7,479 nt of DNA from an uncultured Gammaproteobacteria bacterium. Its GTDB lineage: Bacteria > Patescibacteriota > Microgenomatia > Daviesbacterales > UBA10151. The stretch is from contig CAYHYM010000010.1 in NCBI GenBank assembly GCA_964360965.1, positions 19,495-26,973 on the forward strand, in the 5' to 3' direction. The notes beneath the pieces were generated by a model. The model ran no database searches, was not told the origin of the DNA, and saw only the letters and a list, made by a program, of their open reading frames with translations. The stretch's first letter is position 1. Each line of letters opens with the position of its first letter. The translations under genes were made by a program, and so were the position numbers. Below, in pieces: positions 2 through 7,479 of the stretch.

Positions 2-286
2 GAATTTGAGCAAGTCCTTCAGATTGAAGGACTTGAAGAGATCCAAGCAGAGGGTGAATTCAATCCTGCTTTGCAGGAGGCTGTTGACACAAGGGATGGA
101 GAAAATAATATAATTTTAGAAGTTGTCAGAAAAGGTTATACTTTAAATGGTAAGGTAATTAGACCAAGTCAGGTGGTGGTAGGTAGGAAAAATCCACCCA
201 GTATGGAAGAGACAAAAAACATTCCAGGTGGAGAAACCCAATCAGATATGCATTCACCACTGGATGAGAAAGGAGAGATGTCATAA
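2..286 (+). CDS. grpE: GrpE nucleotide-exchange factor, C-terminal part (5' end lies outside the window)
   Basis: The frame is open from the window edge to TAA at 284-286. The translation ...GEFNPALQEAVDTRDGENNIILEVVRKGYTLNGKVIRPSQVVV matches the conserved GrpE C-terminal beta domain (E. coli ...DPNVHQAI...MQKGYTLNGRTIRAAMVTV). It lies directly upstream of dnaK. It carries a roughly 30-aa extra tail after the conserved end. Confidence 0.85.
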   Translation, partial: EFEQVLQIEGLEEIQAEGEFNPALQEAVDTRDGENNIILEVVRKGYTLNGKVIRPSQVVVGRKNPPSMEETKNIPGGETQSDMHSPLDEKGEMS

Positions 287-289
287 AAC

Positions 290-371
290 GTCATTCCCGC
301 GCAAGCGGGAATCCAATTCCGAATCAGAGATGGTTAATTGGATCCCTGCATTCGCAGGGATGACAGAAAAG
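290..371. repeat. MITE-like double-hairpin element: an inverted pair of the GTCAT / AATTGGAT hairpin unit, with no gene inside
   Basis: Left arm 290-318: gtcat-tcccgc-gcaa-gcggga-atccaatt. Right arm 334-364: ttaattggat-ccctgc-attc-gcaggg-atgac, followed by the conserved agaaaag. The termini GTCAT...ATGAC are inverted. The same architecture recurs at 4080-4165. Confidence 0.75.
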
Positions 372-2586: not shown

Positions 2587-3186
2587 ATGACAGAGCCAGA
2601 TAAAAGTGAGCATGTTTCTCCACTAATGTTAAATCAACGACTGATTGTGATTATTAAAAGAGAAGCTATAAATGAGGTTGCAAATGGCTTACCTAATTCA
2701 GTAATAGCATTACAGCAGGCTGAAAATGTAGTATCAATTGCTAGTAGAAGTATTTTATACAAAGTTCCAAGGAGAATATTTGAGGACGAACGGGCCCAAA
2801 ATATAGCAAGAGAGCTTGAAACTTTATTTGGGTTTGCATACCATCTTACTAATACAGGTCGACAGGTTATTACTGGAGATATTCTTGAATATTTATTTGG
2901 GCCTGGTCTGCCTGATGAACACAACCCTGATAAAAGAATTCCTATTCCAGGATATATTGCCGATTTGGTAAAGTCAGAGGAAGGAGGCTTATTTAATAAG
3001 GAAAAGGCCCCTGAATTAGAAGCTGGCGCGTACAGATCATTAAAAAGAAATTCAGATATTGCTACAAGATGGGTTAACCCATTTAAATTTTTACAACCTT
3101 TAGGTTATGAGATTAAAGATATGCTAGATGTTGTGGAGCATTGGGAATCTGAATTAATAAAAAAGCATGGTGTAATCCCCCAATAA
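2587..3186 (+). CDS. hypothetical protein (199 aa), no family recognised
   Basis: A long open frame starts 7 nt after the dnaK stop, with GAGG (2572-2575) 11 nt upstream of the ATG. It has coding-like composition and no low-complexity sequence. I see no catalytic or DNA-binding motif. It lies between the two copies of the dnaK 3' end. Confidence 0.6.
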   Translation: MTEPDKSEHVSPLMLNQRLIVIIKREAINEVANGLPNSVIALQQAENVVSIASRSILYKVPRRIFEDERAQNIARELETLFGFAYHLTNTGRQVITGDILEYLFGPGLPDEHNPDKRIPIPGYIADLVKSEEGGLFNKEKAPELEAGAYRSLKRNSDIATRWVNPFKFLQPLGYEIKDMLDVVEHWESELIKKHGVIPQ

Positions 3187-3242: not shown

Positions 3243-3265
3243 GCATTTTTAATGGTGGAATCCTA
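3243..3265 (+). repeat. 23-bp direct repeat, copy 1 (gcatttttaatggtggaatccta)
   Basis: Identical 23-mer at 4044-4066. Its 3' half, ggaatcctaatt-like, resembles the inner end of the left hairpin arms (gcaggaatctaatt, gcgggaatccaatt). Confidence 0.8.
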
Positions 3266-3267
3266 TT

Positions 3268-3297
3268 TTGTATTTTTGTAGTACTTTGTGGTACAAT
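3268..3297 (+). promoter_or_regulatory. putative sigma70-type promoter for brnT-brnA
   Basis: TTGTAT (3268-3273), an 18-bp spacer, then an extended -10 TGgTACAAT (3289-3297). The predicted start is near 3304-3305, only 4-5 nt before the brnT ATG, giving a near-leaderless mRNA. Confidence 0.5.
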
Positions 3298-3308: not shown

Positions 3309-3602
3309 ATGAAAGTAGATGAGCTTATTTTCAATGAAAGAAATATTGAACATATAGCTCGTCATAATGTTTTGCCAGAAGAAGTTAAGGAAGTTATAGA
3401 AGGGAATATTTTACCGCTGAAAGCTAAATTAGGGAGAGTGATGGTGATAGGTAAGACTAAAAAAAGTAGAACTTTGGCTGTAATTTTAGAAAAGTTTAAA
3501 GGTAATATCTACTTTCCTGTGACAGCTAGAGGTGCTGATAGGAAAGAAAGGAAAATGTATAAGGAAGAGATAGGAGGTGAAAATGAAAAAGAAAGTAATT
3601 AA
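3309..3602 (+). CDS. brnT: BrnT-family (DUF497-like) type II toxin, 97 aa
   Basis: The N-terminal ...FNERNIEHIARHNVLPEEVKEV... matches the WDxxNxxHIxxHGVxxEEAEEV pattern of BrnT-like toxins. The C-terminal ...PVTARGADRKERKMY matches the conserved (I/V)(S/T)AR...(K/R)ER..Y end. The gene overlaps the downstream antitoxin gene. Confidence 0.8.
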   Translation: MKVDELIFNERNIEHIARHNVLPEEVKEVIEGNILPLKAKLGRVMVIGKTKKSRTLAVILEKFKGNIYFPVTARGADRKERKMYKEEIGGENEKESN

Positions 3603-3862: not shown

Positions 3863-3955
3863 GAAGCAGTTGAAGGTGAAGTGGTTGAAGATCCTTCGGC
3901 GGGTTCGACAAGCTCACCGCAAGCAAGCTCAGGACAAGGAAAAAAGTCAGAGTAA
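3863..3955 (+). pseudogene. orphan duplicate of the last 31 codons of dnaK, including the stop
   Basis: It aligns without gaps to 2488-2580 at 75/93 identical nucleotides by hand count. It reads [30 protein letters not shown] against [30 protein letters not shown] in dnaK. It begins immediately after the brnA stop and has no start codon or upstream dnaK body. Confidence 0.85.
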
Positions 3956-4043: not shown

Positions 4044-4066
4044 GCATTTTTAATGGTGGAATCCTA
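4044..4066 (+). repeat. 23-bp direct repeat, copy 2
   Basis: Identical to 3243-3265. Locally, atcctaatttg also occurs twice, 30 bp apart (4031-4041 and 4061-4071). Confidence 0.8.
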
Positions 4067-4079
4067 ATTTGCCTCCTTT

Positions 4080-4165
4080 GTCATTCCTGCGAATGCAGGA
4101 ATCTAATTAAAAACTAACTTAAAATGGTTAATTGGATACCGGTATTCACCGGTATGACAGATAAG
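4080..4165. repeat. MITE-like double-hairpin element, second copy, immediately upstream of the GIY-YIG gene
   Basis: Left arm 4080-4108: gtcat-tcctgc-gaat-gcagga-atctaatt. Right arm 4128-4158: ttaattggat-accggt-attc-accggt-atgac, followed by agataag. The layout matches 290-371. Confidence 0.75.
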
Positions 4166-4181
4166 GTGTCATAATTAAACT

Positions 4182-4463
4182 ATGTATTATGTTTACATTT
4201 TAGCTTCTAAAAGAAATGGAACTTTATATATTGGTATAACAAATAATTTAGTCAAAAGAGTATATGAGCATAAAAATGATTTAGTAGAAGGATTTACTAA
4301 GAAATACCAAGTTCATAATCTGGTTTACTTTGAGCCACATGAAGATGTCAATGAGGCTATAACTAGAGAGAAACAAATGAAGGAATGGAAAAGATATTGG
4401 AAAATAAAAACTATCAATAAATTTAATTCTGGTTGGAAAGATTTATACAGCTCAATTGTTTAA
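4182..4463 (+). CDS. stand-alone GIY-YIG (URI-domain) nuclease family protein, 93 aa (UPF0213 / COG2827-like)
   Basis: MYYVYILASKRNGTLYIGITNNLVKRVYEHK... carries the GIY-YIG beta-hairpin motifs (YVYIL ... LYIG) plus the conserved R..EH and the downstream E...E.K..W.R..K segment typical of this family. The stop TAA (4461-4463) lies inside the conserved TTAATTGGAT repeat box. Confidence 0.9.
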   Translation: MYYVYILASKRNGTLYIGITNNLVKRVYEHKNDLVEGFTKKYQVHNLVYFEPHEDVNEAITREKQMKEWKRYWKIKTINKFNSGWKDLYSSIV

Positions 4464-4490
4464 TTGGATCCCCGCGTAGGCGGGGATGAC
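4460..4490 (+). repeat. solo hairpin unit (right-arm type) overlapping the GIY-YIG stop codon
   Basis: ttaattggat-ccccgc-gtag-gcgggg-atgac. The conserved boxes are identical to 334-364 and 4128-4158, and the stem is different but perfectly complementary. Confidence 0.8.
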
Positions 4491-4538: not shown

Positions 4539-5288
4539 ATGGCTAAAAGAGATTACTATGAAATTTTAGGGGTAAATAAATCAGCATCTACTGATGAAAT
4601 AAAATTAGCTTATAGAAGACTTGCCAGGAAACATCATCCTGATGTAGATAAATCTGCCGGGGCTGCAGAGAGATTTAAAGAAATAGGGGAAGCTTACCAG
4701 GTTTTATCTGATCCGCAAAAGAAACAATCATATGATCAGTTTGGCCATGCTGCTTTTGACAGAGGAGCCGGAGGATATGGTGGAGGAGCAGGGCCTTTTG
4801 GTGGCGGCGGGCAATCCTACAGTTGGTCTACTTCAGGTAACCCCAATATTCAGTTTGACTTTGGCGGATTTGAGGATCCATTTGAACTTTTTGAACAAAT
4901 TTTTGGCGGTGGGTTTGGTGCTGCCATGAGACGCCGCCCAACTTATCAACTTAATCTAACTTTTGATGAGGCCATCCATGGAGTGACTAAAGAAATAGAG
5001 GTGGAAGAAAGAAATAGTCAGGGAAGATTAACTAGAAAGAGACTTAAGATTAAAGTTCCGGCAGGAGTTGATAATGGGACTAGAATGCGTTTTGGTCCGT
5101 CAGCTGACGGATTGGATATTGTATTCAGAGTCCCCCGCCATCCGCATTTTTTGCGAGAAGGAGCGGATATTTTTTCGGAAATTAATATAACTATTCCCCA
5201 GCTGGTTTTGGGGGATATCTTTGAAGTAGAAACTGTTTCCGGAAAAGTCAAGGTAAAAGTCCCTCGGGAACACAACCTGGAAGCTTAG
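4539..5288 (+). CDS. dnaJ: DnaJ/CbpA-like class B J-protein (J domain, G/F region, no zinc finger); the frame ends prematurely because of a frameshift
   Basis: MAKRDYYEILGV...YRRLARKHHPDV...FKEIGEAYQVLSDPQKKQSYDQFG is a J domain with the HPD motif, followed by a Gly/Phe-rich linker. There is no cysteine and so no CxxCxGxG repeats. ...LKIKVPAGVDNGTRMRF is the C-terminal substrate-binding domain. The frame stops at TAG 5286-5288 while the homology continues in another frame. Confidence 0.85.
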   Translation: MAKRDYYEILGVNKSASTDEIKLAYRRLARKHHPDVDKSAGAAERFKEIGEAYQVLSDPQKKQSYDQFGHAAFDRGAGGYGGGAGPFGGGGQSYSWSTSGNPNIQFDFGGFEDPFELFEQIFGGGFGAAMRRRPTYQLNLTFDEAIHGVTKEIEVEERNSQGRLTRKRLKIKVPAGVDNGTRMRFGPSADGLDIVFRVPRHPHFLREGADIFSEINITIPQLVLGDIFEVETVSGKVKVKVPREHNLEA

Positions 5289-6618: not shown

Positions 6619-7479
6619 ATGGCAGAAAACATAAGACCACCTATTGTAACCATCCTTGGCCATGTTGATCATGGTAAGACTACCTTACTCGATTTTATCC
6701 GTAAATCTAATGTAGCCTCCAAAGAACATGGTGGAATTACCCAACACATTGGTGCCTACCAGATTGAGGTTCCGCAGGAACCGAAATCCCGAGAGAGCGA
6801 AGCGAATCGAGGGATCCTTCGGCAAGTCTTCGACTCCGAGGACTTCGACGGTGAGCTCAGTCGAACCGTCGCTCAGACTCGAGGAGCTCAGGATGATTTT
6901 GCGAATAACCGCAAAATCACTTTCATAGATACTCCTGGTCATGCTGCCTTTGAAAAAATGCGATCTCGGGGTGCAAAGGTTGCGGATATCGCAGTACTGG
7001 TGGTGGCAGTTGATGATGGAATAATGCCTCAAACTATTGAGTCCATAAAACATATTCAGGAAGCAAAGATTCCCTTGATTGCGGCAGTTAATAAGGTAGA
7101 TTTAGCAGGAATTAATTTAAAAGTTCAACTGGAAAAGATCAAAAAACAACTTTCAGATAAAGGAGTTTTGGTTGAAGAATATGGTGGAGATGTGCCTGTT
7201 GTGCCTTTGTCAGCAAAAACAGGAGAAGGAGTAGATAAGCTTTTGGAGATGATTTCACTTGTTGCAGAAATGCATGAGATAAAAGGGGATCCTCAAACTC
7301 CTGCATCCGGGGTGGTAATTGAAGCTAATTTAGATAAATTTAAAGGACCTATTGCCACAATTTTGGTAAGGAATGGCCAACTTAAGAAAGGTGACCAGAT
7401 AATGGTTGGTGGAGTAAAAGGAAGAGTTCGTGGGATGTTTGATTTTTCAGGTAAAAGCTTAGATCAGGCTGGACCATCA
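6619..7479 (+). CDS. infB: translation initiation factor IF-2, 5' part (3' end outside the window), carrying a 47-codon in-frame insertion
   Basis: Not listed in the ORF track because there is no stop in the window. I read the frame codon by codon through 6960 (the whole insert and both junctions) and translated the rest at sight, without seeing a stop from ATG 6619 to 7479. [25 protein letters not shown] (G1), [10 protein letters not shown] (G2), [10 protein letters not shown] (G3), NKVD (G4), SAKTG (G5), then ...[29 protein letters not shown]... (domain II). An in-frame TGA at 6592-6594 rules out any N-terminal extension. Confidence 0.93.
6769..6909. repeat. 141-nt GC-rich palindromic repeat block inserted in frame in the infB G domain
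   Basis: 79/141 G+C (56%) by hand count, against 23/60 in 6661-6720 and 20/60 in 7081-7140. Hairpins: ggttcc-gca-ggaacc (6767-6781), atccc...gggat (6786-6815) and gacggt-N12-accgtc (6846-6869). The GGATCCTTCG, (C)TTCGAC x2, GCTCAG x3 and GCTCAGGA motifs are shared with the dnaK tail repeats. Other bacterial IF2 proteins have only about 5-8 residues here (E. coli AYHVETENGMITFLDTPGH). Confidence 0.7.

Follow-up and report, generated by a model that had tools for sequence, protein, structure and literature searches.

The closest described counterparts of the repeats treated here are those of Neisseria, for which Chenal et al. (2025, Nat Commun 16:2388; PMC11893778) defined the NTS, CGTCATTCCCGCGMAVGCGGGAATCYRG, a sequence holding the long-known dRS3 palindrome, together with a wider "Ssn-related motif" (SRM). 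Across bacteria, NTS/SRM repeats flank ssnA, a gene for a 94-amino-acid (aa), single-domain GIY-YIG protein of CDD family cd10448. SsnA binds the repeat only as single-stranded DNA (ssDNA) and cuts a few nucleotides (nt) upstream of it; the complementary strand, duplex DNA, and RNA are not substrates, and the RNA version of the repeat is not bound by the N. meningitidis (Nm) enzyme. In mutagenesis of the Neisseria repeat, cutting depended on the three bases 5' of the palindrome (GTC) and binding on the C just 3' of it; in the enzyme, mutation of Y6, Y17, or E64 abolishes cutting by Nm SsnA. The Ssn family was described as mainly Pseudomonadati, and its role in Neisseria is to limit transformation by trimming incoming transforming DNA (all from PMC11893778). 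Here we analyze a 7,479-nucleotide stretch of contig CAYHYM010000010.1 (positions 19,495 to 26,973), called the window below, which carries five short hairpin units, three of them placed around a gene for a small GIY-YIG nuclease, ssn.

We conclude, with a probability of about 0.85, that the five units are SRMs, that is, members of the wider family of the NTS/dRS3 repeat, and that they would be bound and cut as ssDNA by the Ssn protein encoded with them. Judged by its sequence, the locus appears to be an ordinary example of the system described in 2025, with copies of the NTS/SRM repeat and an ssn gene between three of them. The identification itself is routine, and it turns an enigmatic-looking repeat into the probable recognition site of a recently described nuclease family.

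Hairpin units in the window

The pattern AATTRGAT-N16-ATGAC occurs five times in the window without a mismatch, at 290-318 (-), 336-364 (+), 4080-4108 (-), 4130-4158 (+), and 4462-4490 (+). Dinucleotide shuffles of the window hold a mean of 0.04 matches, and none of 200 shuffles held as many as five; a repeat finder returned the same five copies, grouped as direct and inverted families. Read on the opposite strand, every unit is GTCAT-stem-loop-stem-ATCC, and it is the strand of this GTCAT reading (+ for two units, - for three) that is given in the list.

290-318, + strand: hairpin unit of SRM/NTS type, left unit of a doublet; GTCAT-TCCCGC-GCAA-GCGGGA-ATCCAATT; DNA fold -9.0 kcal/mol
336-364, - strand: hairpin unit of SRM type, right unit of the doublet; GTCAT on the - strand, stem CCCTGC/GCAGGG
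4080-4108, + strand: left terminal hairpin unit of the ssn module; GTCAT-TCCTGC-GAAT-GCAGGA-ATCTAATT; from pattern match and DNA fold
4130-4158, - strand: internal hairpin unit in right-end orientation; stem ACCGGT; from pattern match and DNA fold
4462-4490, - strand: right terminal hairpin unit of the module; GTCAT-CCCCGC-CTAC-GCGGGG-ATCCAATT on the - strand

Folded as ssDNA, each of the five forms a stem of 8 bp without a mismatch (AT plus 6 bp), closed by a 4-nt loop, at energies of -7.6 to -9.9 kcal/mol and z-scores of -3.3 to -5.0. An initial annotation of this DNA had described five hairpin units with invariant flanks and self-complementary stems of 8 bp including an AT/AT step, and both descriptions are borne out, the first by five exact matches against 0.04 expected and the second by the folds. 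Three of its ranges (334-364, 4128-4158, and 4460-4490) mark the right sites and run two bases longer than its own 29-nt strings, starting at the TT or TA of TTAATTGGAT. It had also taken every stem to be different, with changes compensated between the arms. That much is correct, but the stems are not free to vary: the six-base arms, TCCCGC, CCCTGC, TCCTGC, ACCGGT, and CCCCGC, are all held to N-C-C-N-G-C/T and differ mainly at arm positions 1 and 4, where changes are compensated on the other arm.

One unit is essentially canonical by the Neisseria consensus: on its GTCAT strand, unit 290-318 is identical to the NTS consensus CGTCATTCCCGCGMAVGCGGGAATCYRG at 27 of 28 positions. Over the five units the mismatches to the 28-nt consensus number 1, 5, 7, 9, and 5 (7 for unit 336-364), and in the other four units most are compensated stem changes. 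GTC and the C after the palindrome, which do not vary among the window units, are the positions that experiments on the Neisseria repeat showed to be critical, and the oriented motif as a whole (5' box GTCAT, palindrome, C just 3' of it) is present in all five units.

Selection on the folded structure

A larger sample of units was collected by their flanks alone (GTCAT-N16-ATCC) from 1.17 Mb of sequence around 80 unrelated loci, so that the stem played no part in the choice. This yielded 173 units where about 9 were expected, and 84% of them have at least five nested Watson-Crick pairs; neighboring spacings such as N12 to N15 between the same flanks stay at background level. We then aligned the 97 distinct unit sequences. 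In the proposed helix, 91.5% of the cells are paired, against 75.4% in shuffled alignments (0 of 500 shuffles as high). Double-sided changes occupy 112 cells (32 shuffled), the covariation score is 0.382 (0.116 shuffled), and sliding the partner by 1 to 3 columns lowers pairing to 19 to 44%. Covariation of the stem holds in this alignment. Plain duplication and chance, both already doubted when the units were first noticed, are excluded as the origin of the units by the shuffles, the flank-only sample, and the covariation.

The covariation is unevenly spread. Both sides have changed in 31 of the 97 units at pair 6/21 and in 50 at pair 9/18; the remaining four variable stem pairs are about 78% one type, and the consensus arm is N-C-C-N-G-C. 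Because covariation is concentrated in two pairs and the stems are not free, the alignment points to recognition of the unit by shape as well as by sequence. The covariation, taken with the published mutagenesis (PMC11893778), upholds the earlier claim of selection on a folded nucleic acid whose flanks are read sequence-specifically. That claim had left the choice between DNA and RNA; ssDNA is the part that stands, and RNA is not, the published enzyme being inactive on it.

The ssn gene and its product

The gene that lies between the units of the module is the following.

4182-4463, + strand: ssn, coding for a 93-aa single-domain GIY-YIG nuclease; from PF01541 and homology to an SsnA orthologue

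PF01541 covers residues 1 to 74 of the 93-aa protein (E 3.1e-16), and no second domain scores above its curated cut-off (T5orf172 reaches 17.9 bits against a 20-bit cut-off). A sequence search of solved structures and NCBIfam gave no informative match for the nuclease, Pfam and NCBIfam recognizing the generic GIY-YIG domain only. A six-frame profile search of the window found this one ssn gene. Its TAA stop codon (4461-4463) lies within TTAATTGGAT, and the last two bases of the codon also open the 29-nt right unit.

Ssn homology was defined in PMC11893778 by a BLASTP E value below 1e-10 over at least 75% coverage against N. meningitidis SsnA (CAX49033.1), for which we used the N. gonorrhoeae orthologue as a proxy. 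The window protein is 53% identical to this 94-aa protein over 90 of 93 residues without gaps (BLASTP, pairwise E 5e-38; tblastn E 5e-27), which by way of the proxy places it inside the published definition. Residues Y5, Y16, and E63, which are invariant in 34 relatives, correspond in the alignment to Y6, Y17, and E64 of the Neisseria protein. The protein also has the size described for the family (about 94 aa, under 150 aa, no extra DNA-binding domain), and SRM hairpins lie within 500 bp of the gene on both sides, two upstream (4080-4108 and 4130-4158) and one downstream (4462-4490). Contigs from Hainich groundwater well H51, 0.1-µm fraction, carry the exact 93-aa protein, whose closest named relatives are from Candidatus Daviesbacteria; on this account the host is probably a member of the candidate phyla radiation.

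The proxy is a 94-aa open reading frame (ORF) at 1489-1773 of record L097 (NZ_CP119140.1), with NTS copies on both sides; we infer that it is the SsnA orthologue from its length, the residues Y6/Y17/E64, and the NTS flanks. This record and NZ_CP119142.1 come from a plasmid collection, but at 2.17 Mb these N. gonorrhoeae sequences are evidently whole chromosomes. At the gonococcal ssnA locus the NTS orientation is reversed, with GGAT...ATGAC upstream and GTCAT...ATCC downstream.

The ssn-hairpin association in other bacteria

The GIY-YIG family is very large, with at least 7,998 members at E 1e-5 among the 8,000 candidates scored, mostly on short contigs. A scan of one genome per species gave 80 loci with proteins 57 to 73% identical to that of the window, from Omnitrophota, Saccharibacteria, all classes of Proteobacteria, Planctomycetota, Chloroflexota, Ignavibacteria, Cyanobacteria, Nitrospirae, and others. 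The same flanks recur: upstream, GTCAT-stem-loop-stem-ATCCAG at 10 to 40 nt before the start codon, and downstream, CTGGAT-stem-loop-stem-ATGAC directly after the stop, most commonly with a gap of 2 nt; the end of the left unit is typically 15 to 25 nt ahead of the start codon. Among the 78 loci with enough flank, hairpin units stand on both sides of ssn in 48, on one side in 25, and on neither in 5. The 39 full-length loci contain 231 units, of which 153 are no farther than 1 kb from the ssn gene. The annotated N- or C-terminal extensions of some family members are translated hairpin (for example, MSFPRKRESK); repeat-encoded peptides (PAKAGIQ, RFRGND, and others) gave no matches in the literature.

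Weighing the identification

Several points weigh against reading the window units as SRMs served by this Ssn. None of the five matches the published SRM string HGTCWYN(0-2)YYVSBRHN(0-5)WNVSBRGN(0-2)RNCYNB, and only two do when its last base is relaxed. In Neisseria, changing the palindrome with the hairpin kept abolished Nm SsnA activity (PMC11893778), and here a single module carries three different stems (TCCTGC, ACCGGT, and CCCCGC). The activity of the window nuclease as an ssDNA cutter is carried over from its homologues by analogy, and the unit count rests on about 10 kb of the source genome, the genome-wide copy number lying beyond that.

The misses to the string come from the final A of the 3' flank (ATCCAA, not ATCYRG) and from T/A where S is demanded. 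Among the relatives, only 49 of 78 genes have a unit nearby that this string recognizes, and 14 of 78 have one on both sides, for which reason the string would seem to be narrower than the family; we regard the search string as too narrow rather than the window units as outsiders. Since the string misses all five window units, surveys based on it probably under-count the family in bacteria of the candidate phyla radiation (CPR). As to the three stems, either the window enzyme tolerates changes at arm positions 1, 4, and 6, or only some of the units are its substrates. The presence of one small enzyme with three stems whose changed positions are compensated suggests which pairs are read by shape and which by sequence, a division that would be useful if Ssn enzymes were developed as programmable ssDNA cutters.

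In the mechanism that we favor, the strand reading 5'-GTCAT-stem-loop-stem-ATCC-3' would fold into the 8-bp hairpin when single-stranded. Ssn (4182-4463) would bind this hairpin by reading the stem, the invariant GTC on its 5' side, and the C on its 3' side, and would cut the same strand a few nt 5' of GTCAT, with no action predicted on duplex DNA, RNA, or the complementary strand. Single-strand specificity, cut position, and critical bases are taken over from the published homologues, and by this analogy the window enzyme would be expected to cut the window units. The role known from Neisseria, the trimming of transforming DNA, may or may not apply in the window host.

The module, its boundaries, and the doublet

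Three features are built from the hairpin units.

4080-4490, + strand: composite Ssn module of 411 bp, GTCAT at the left end and ATGAC at the right; from homology boundaries
4168-4176, + strand: left-end box without a hairpin, GTCATAATT, 5 nt before the ssn start codon; read from the sequence
290-364, either strand: gene-less doublet of 75 bp, made of a left unit, a 17-nt spacer, and an inverted right unit; an inverted repeat

Ssn proteins at least 90% identical to that of the window occur in three other gene contexts. The four contexts are given here with the neighbors of ssn on either side.

Window locus: CopG, ssn, dnaJ
L085: mreB, ssn, wzy
L091-L094: lon, ssn, orf170
L095: pspC, ssn, DUF433

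Between copies at the four loci the ssn genes have 84 to 87% nucleotide identity, and the L085 protein is 92% identical to that of the window. In the comparison of the window with L085, homology starts at TGTCAT (4079/4080) and stops at ATGAC (4490). Across the four loci the modules are 72 to 86% identical and the 60-nt flanks 35 to 57% (shuffled mean, 51.5%), and this combination of a shared module with flanks at the shuffled level defines 4080-4490 as one discrete module of 411 bp. One gammaproteobacterial metagenome-assembled genome (MAG) holds two 412-bp copies, 88% identical, with unrelated flanks and the same boundary behavior.

The order within the window module is left unit, internal right-oriented unit, hairpin-less GTCATAATT box, ssn gene, and right unit. 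The terminal units, 4080-4108 and 4462-4490, are its inverted ends, and 4130-4158 lies inside, where it forms a doublet with 4080-4108. L085 matches the window exactly over the 36 nt that span the left unit (4079-4114), and L091 does so over the 25-nt core of the unit. The internal unit is present in L095 and missing, either deleted or never inserted, from L085 and L091. The right unit has the stem CCCCGC/GCGGGG in the window and CCCGAC/GTCGGG in L085, L091, and L095, so that two stem pairs differ and both are compensated. A GTCATAAT/GGCATAAT box likewise precedes the ATG in L085 and L091, and the window box at 4168-4176 may be a decayed left unit. We also considered 4080-4158 as an independent miniature element and rejected it because, in the comparison with L085, L091, and L095, the module as a whole has its functional left boundary at 4080-4108.

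The gene-less doublet, 290-364, lies in the grpE-dnaK intergenic region, upstream of an orphan ORF (399-623), and aligns with the 5' part of the ssn module. Left-then-right doublets with spacers of at most 80 nt number 54 in the 80 ssn loci. At L034 (9357-10910; Thermodesulfobacteriota), at least 11 near-identical 76-bp doublets stand on both sides of ssn at a spacing of about 112 nt, as a tandem array and not as dispersed copies.

Alternative explanations

The alternative that survives best overlaps with the identification given above and differs from it only in what the system is for. It holds that the module is primarily a selfish mobile element, with the hairpins as its ends and doublets as non-autonomous derivatives or landing sites, and we give it somewhat less than an even chance. 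The idea was raised, not shown, in PMC11893778, which left the mobility of NTS-ssn-NTS open, and the exact GTCAT...ATGAC boundaries at unrelated loci are comparative evidence on that question. These boundaries are a result beyond PMC11893778 and, as a matter of sequence comparison, would fit a mobile module: closely related ssn genes stand in four unrelated gene contexts of related CPR genomes with homology edges at GTCAT and ATGAC, and the predicted cuts, on opposite strands just outside the two ends of the module, would suit a selfish element resembling an insertion sequence (IS). Proteins 57 to 73% identical across very distant phyla and the 54 doublets, the L034 array included, argue in the same direction. 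The very short contigs on which the family is mostly found may be counted here as well, since they could reflect repeats that break assemblies.

Other results speak against mobility, however. Exact look-ups of CopG and of the 74-aa orphan ORF gave only contigs of the same population, and a metagenome scan with the gene adjoining the L091 copy gave only that contig, so that neither search produced an empty site; the four CPR insertions show no visible target-site duplication. The copies are only 72 to 86% identical, which implies that the insertions are not recent, and rearrangement of the neighboring genes is a possible alternative account of the contexts. A lone hydrolytic nuclease of 93 aa, of a kind without known strand-transfer activity, cannot itself rejoin DNA. 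For these reasons mobility is put forward conditionally. Ssn would nick each strand outside the ends, and host replication or repair would copy or move the module of roughly 370 to 410 bp, with gene-less doublets of 60 to 115 bp, such as 290-364, as non-autonomous derivatives or landing pads. That SRM-ssn-SRM would in this way move autonomously, as a type of mobile element that has yet to be demonstrated, is a tentative proposal about which we are more doubtful than hopeful.

Two sets of observations concern the surroundings of the modules. TAAAAC or TAAAC occurs within 3 to 6 nt before three of the five left ends examined (window 281-289; L085 4231-4240; L091 9931-9941) and in two cases includes the stop codon of the upstream gene; this could be a target preference or a coincidence in AT-rich DNA. 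In one deltaproteobacterial MAG, the ssn module lies within an outer inverted repeat, CATAAGCGCTAACTTAA ... TTAAGTTAGCGCTTATG (L011, about 9890-10390; L020, about 9885-10400), and such an outer repeat is also found around the module in L043, L055, and L073. Similar 12-nt strings stand outside the outer repeat on both sides (CCCCCCAGCCCC in L011) and look like the target-site duplication of a larger carrier element.

A role at the RNA level is improbable. It would make the units intrinsic terminators, mRNA stabilizers, or processing sites of a grpE-dnaK-dnaJ operon, and their intergenic position, their G+C-rich stems in sequence of about 40% G+C, and the start of unit 290-318 only 4 nt past the grpE stop are what such elements might show. 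Yet the one terminator-like call, made for 290-318, is on the - strand, opposite to all genes, and the other four units are without a T tract; the units also occur in both orientations relative to transcription. Rfam 15 gave no match up to E = 1 for the whole window on both strands. The same repeat brackets ssn in dozens of phyla whatever the neighboring genes, and RNA is the form that Nm SsnA does not bind (PMC11893778). The terminator, small-RNA, or processing role considered when the units were first noticed consequently finds no support. A promoter scan gave a hit at 4154-4181 in which ATGACA serves as the -35 box, with a score of only 9/12; hits of this kind are not enriched over shuffles.

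REP/REPIN-type elements serviced by a RAYT (Y1/HUH) transposase elsewhere in the genome would also be extragenic hairpins with an oriented conserved flank and inverted doublets, but we consider them very improbable here and set them aside because the gene consistently bracketed is a GIY-YIG nuclease and not a Y1 transposase, the window ORFs scanned hold no other nuclease or transposase family and no Y1 domain, and the conserved box is GTCAT, which a published Ssn enzyme reads (PMC11893778).

Gene context and other features of the window

The remaining genes of the window are as follows.

To 286: 3' end of grpE
399-623: orphan ORF of 74 aa (ORF74), overlapping the start of dnaK
616-2580: dnaK
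2587-3186: ORF199, unknown product
3309-3602: BrnT-like ORF, a weak call (PF04365, E 0.0013, 19.4 bits against a 34.5-bit cut-off)
3583/3604-3861: CopG-type antitoxin gene
Downstream of ssn, in order: dnaJ, nusA, infB

ORF74 stands behind the doublet as ssn stands behind its own units, with a similar AAACTATG leader. We considered it as a decayed ssn and rejected this, the six-frame profile search having found a single ssn gene. Among 5.8 billion proteins it has no homologue but itself, and it has no family match; for want of homologues we doubt that it is a real conserved gene.

Two copies of the 3' end of dnaK, with 84% nucleotide identity, stand at 2488-2580 and 3863-3955. The block between them (ORF199, the BrnT-like ORF, and CopG) has the look of DNA inserted into the end of dnaK, the tail having been either carried in or re-created and an orphan copy remaining. 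A 28-nt direct repeat, GCATTTTTAATGGTGGAATCCTAWTTTG (27 of 28 identical), at 3243-3270 and 4044-4071 brackets the BrnT/CopG cassette and the orphan dnaK tail, and the second of its copies stops 8 nt short of the left end of the ssn module; these repeats may mark the cassette's ends or be its attachment site.

Two in-frame coding segments, 6775-6900 in infB and 2401-2575 in the dnaK tail, are G+C rich (56 to 59%, against about 38% nearby) and share GGATCCTTCG, TTCGAC, and GCTCAGGA. The infB segment lengthens the IF2 G domain by about 40 residues, placed between GAYQ and ITFIDTPGH, and folds no better than its shuffles. The two segments may represent a second family of short insertions, one tolerant of translation. 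Finally, dnaJ is split near 5285 (ORF 4539-5288, then a change of frame), and contig L001 of the same population has an intact 309-aa gene, so that the split reflects either a frameshift at the level of the strain or an error of sequencing or assembly.

Comparison with known systems

The window repeats agree with the NTS/SRM-Ssn system (PMC11893778) in being oriented, extragenic hairpins of about 28 nt, built of GTCAT, an NCCNGC-type palindrome, a 4-nt loop, and ATCC, and in bracketing a single-domain GIY-YIG gene of about 94 aa. They differ from it in several respects. The host is an uncultured groundwater bacterium from a 0.1-µm filtrate whose nearest named Ssn comes from Candidatus Daviesbacteria. 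The 3' flank is ATCCAATTAA instead of ATCYRG, and the published search string misses the units. The ssn stop codon lies inside the TTAATTGGAT flank, with a two-base overlap with the right unit, and the module has three stems and is composite, combining a doublet with a gene that is preceded by a hairpin-less left box.

The dRS3 repeats and NIMEs of Neisseria (ATTCCC-N8-GGGAAT) are likewise clustered between genes, and the palindromic cores of 290-318 and 4080-4108 (ATTCCCGC...GCGGGAAT and ATTCCTGC...GCAGGAAT) have the dRS3 form. Unlike the window units, dRS3 was defined without oriented flanks, and in Neisseria it is known as a phage integration target and a recombination hot spot.

REP/REPIN-RAYT systems and BIMEs share the extragenic hairpins with a conserved oriented box, often in inverted doublets, and REP/REPIN-RAYT shares a single-copy nuclease gene that is flanked by the repeats and presumed to service them in ssDNA. 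The enzyme of the window is, in contrast, a GIY-YIG hydrolase with no covalent intermediate by which to rejoin DNA, and the box has a different sequence.

Free-standing GIY-YIG homing endonucleases of the I-TevI type have the same catalytic domain and selfish-looking, horizontally spread genes, but they carry a separate DNA-binding domain, cut duplex DNA, and have no flanking hairpin inverted repeats; the NCBIfam model for group I intron endonucleases scores 19.5 bits on the window nuclease, against a cutoff of 56. Elements of the IS200/IS605 group, and those of IS91 type, likewise have hairpins at their ends that are recognized in ssDNA, and make no target-site duplication. In these elements, however, the hairpins are subterminal and non-inverted, and TnpA (Y1) cuts one strand at both ends, whereas the ends of the window module are true inverted repeats, so that the cuts predicted for Ssn would fall on opposite strands.

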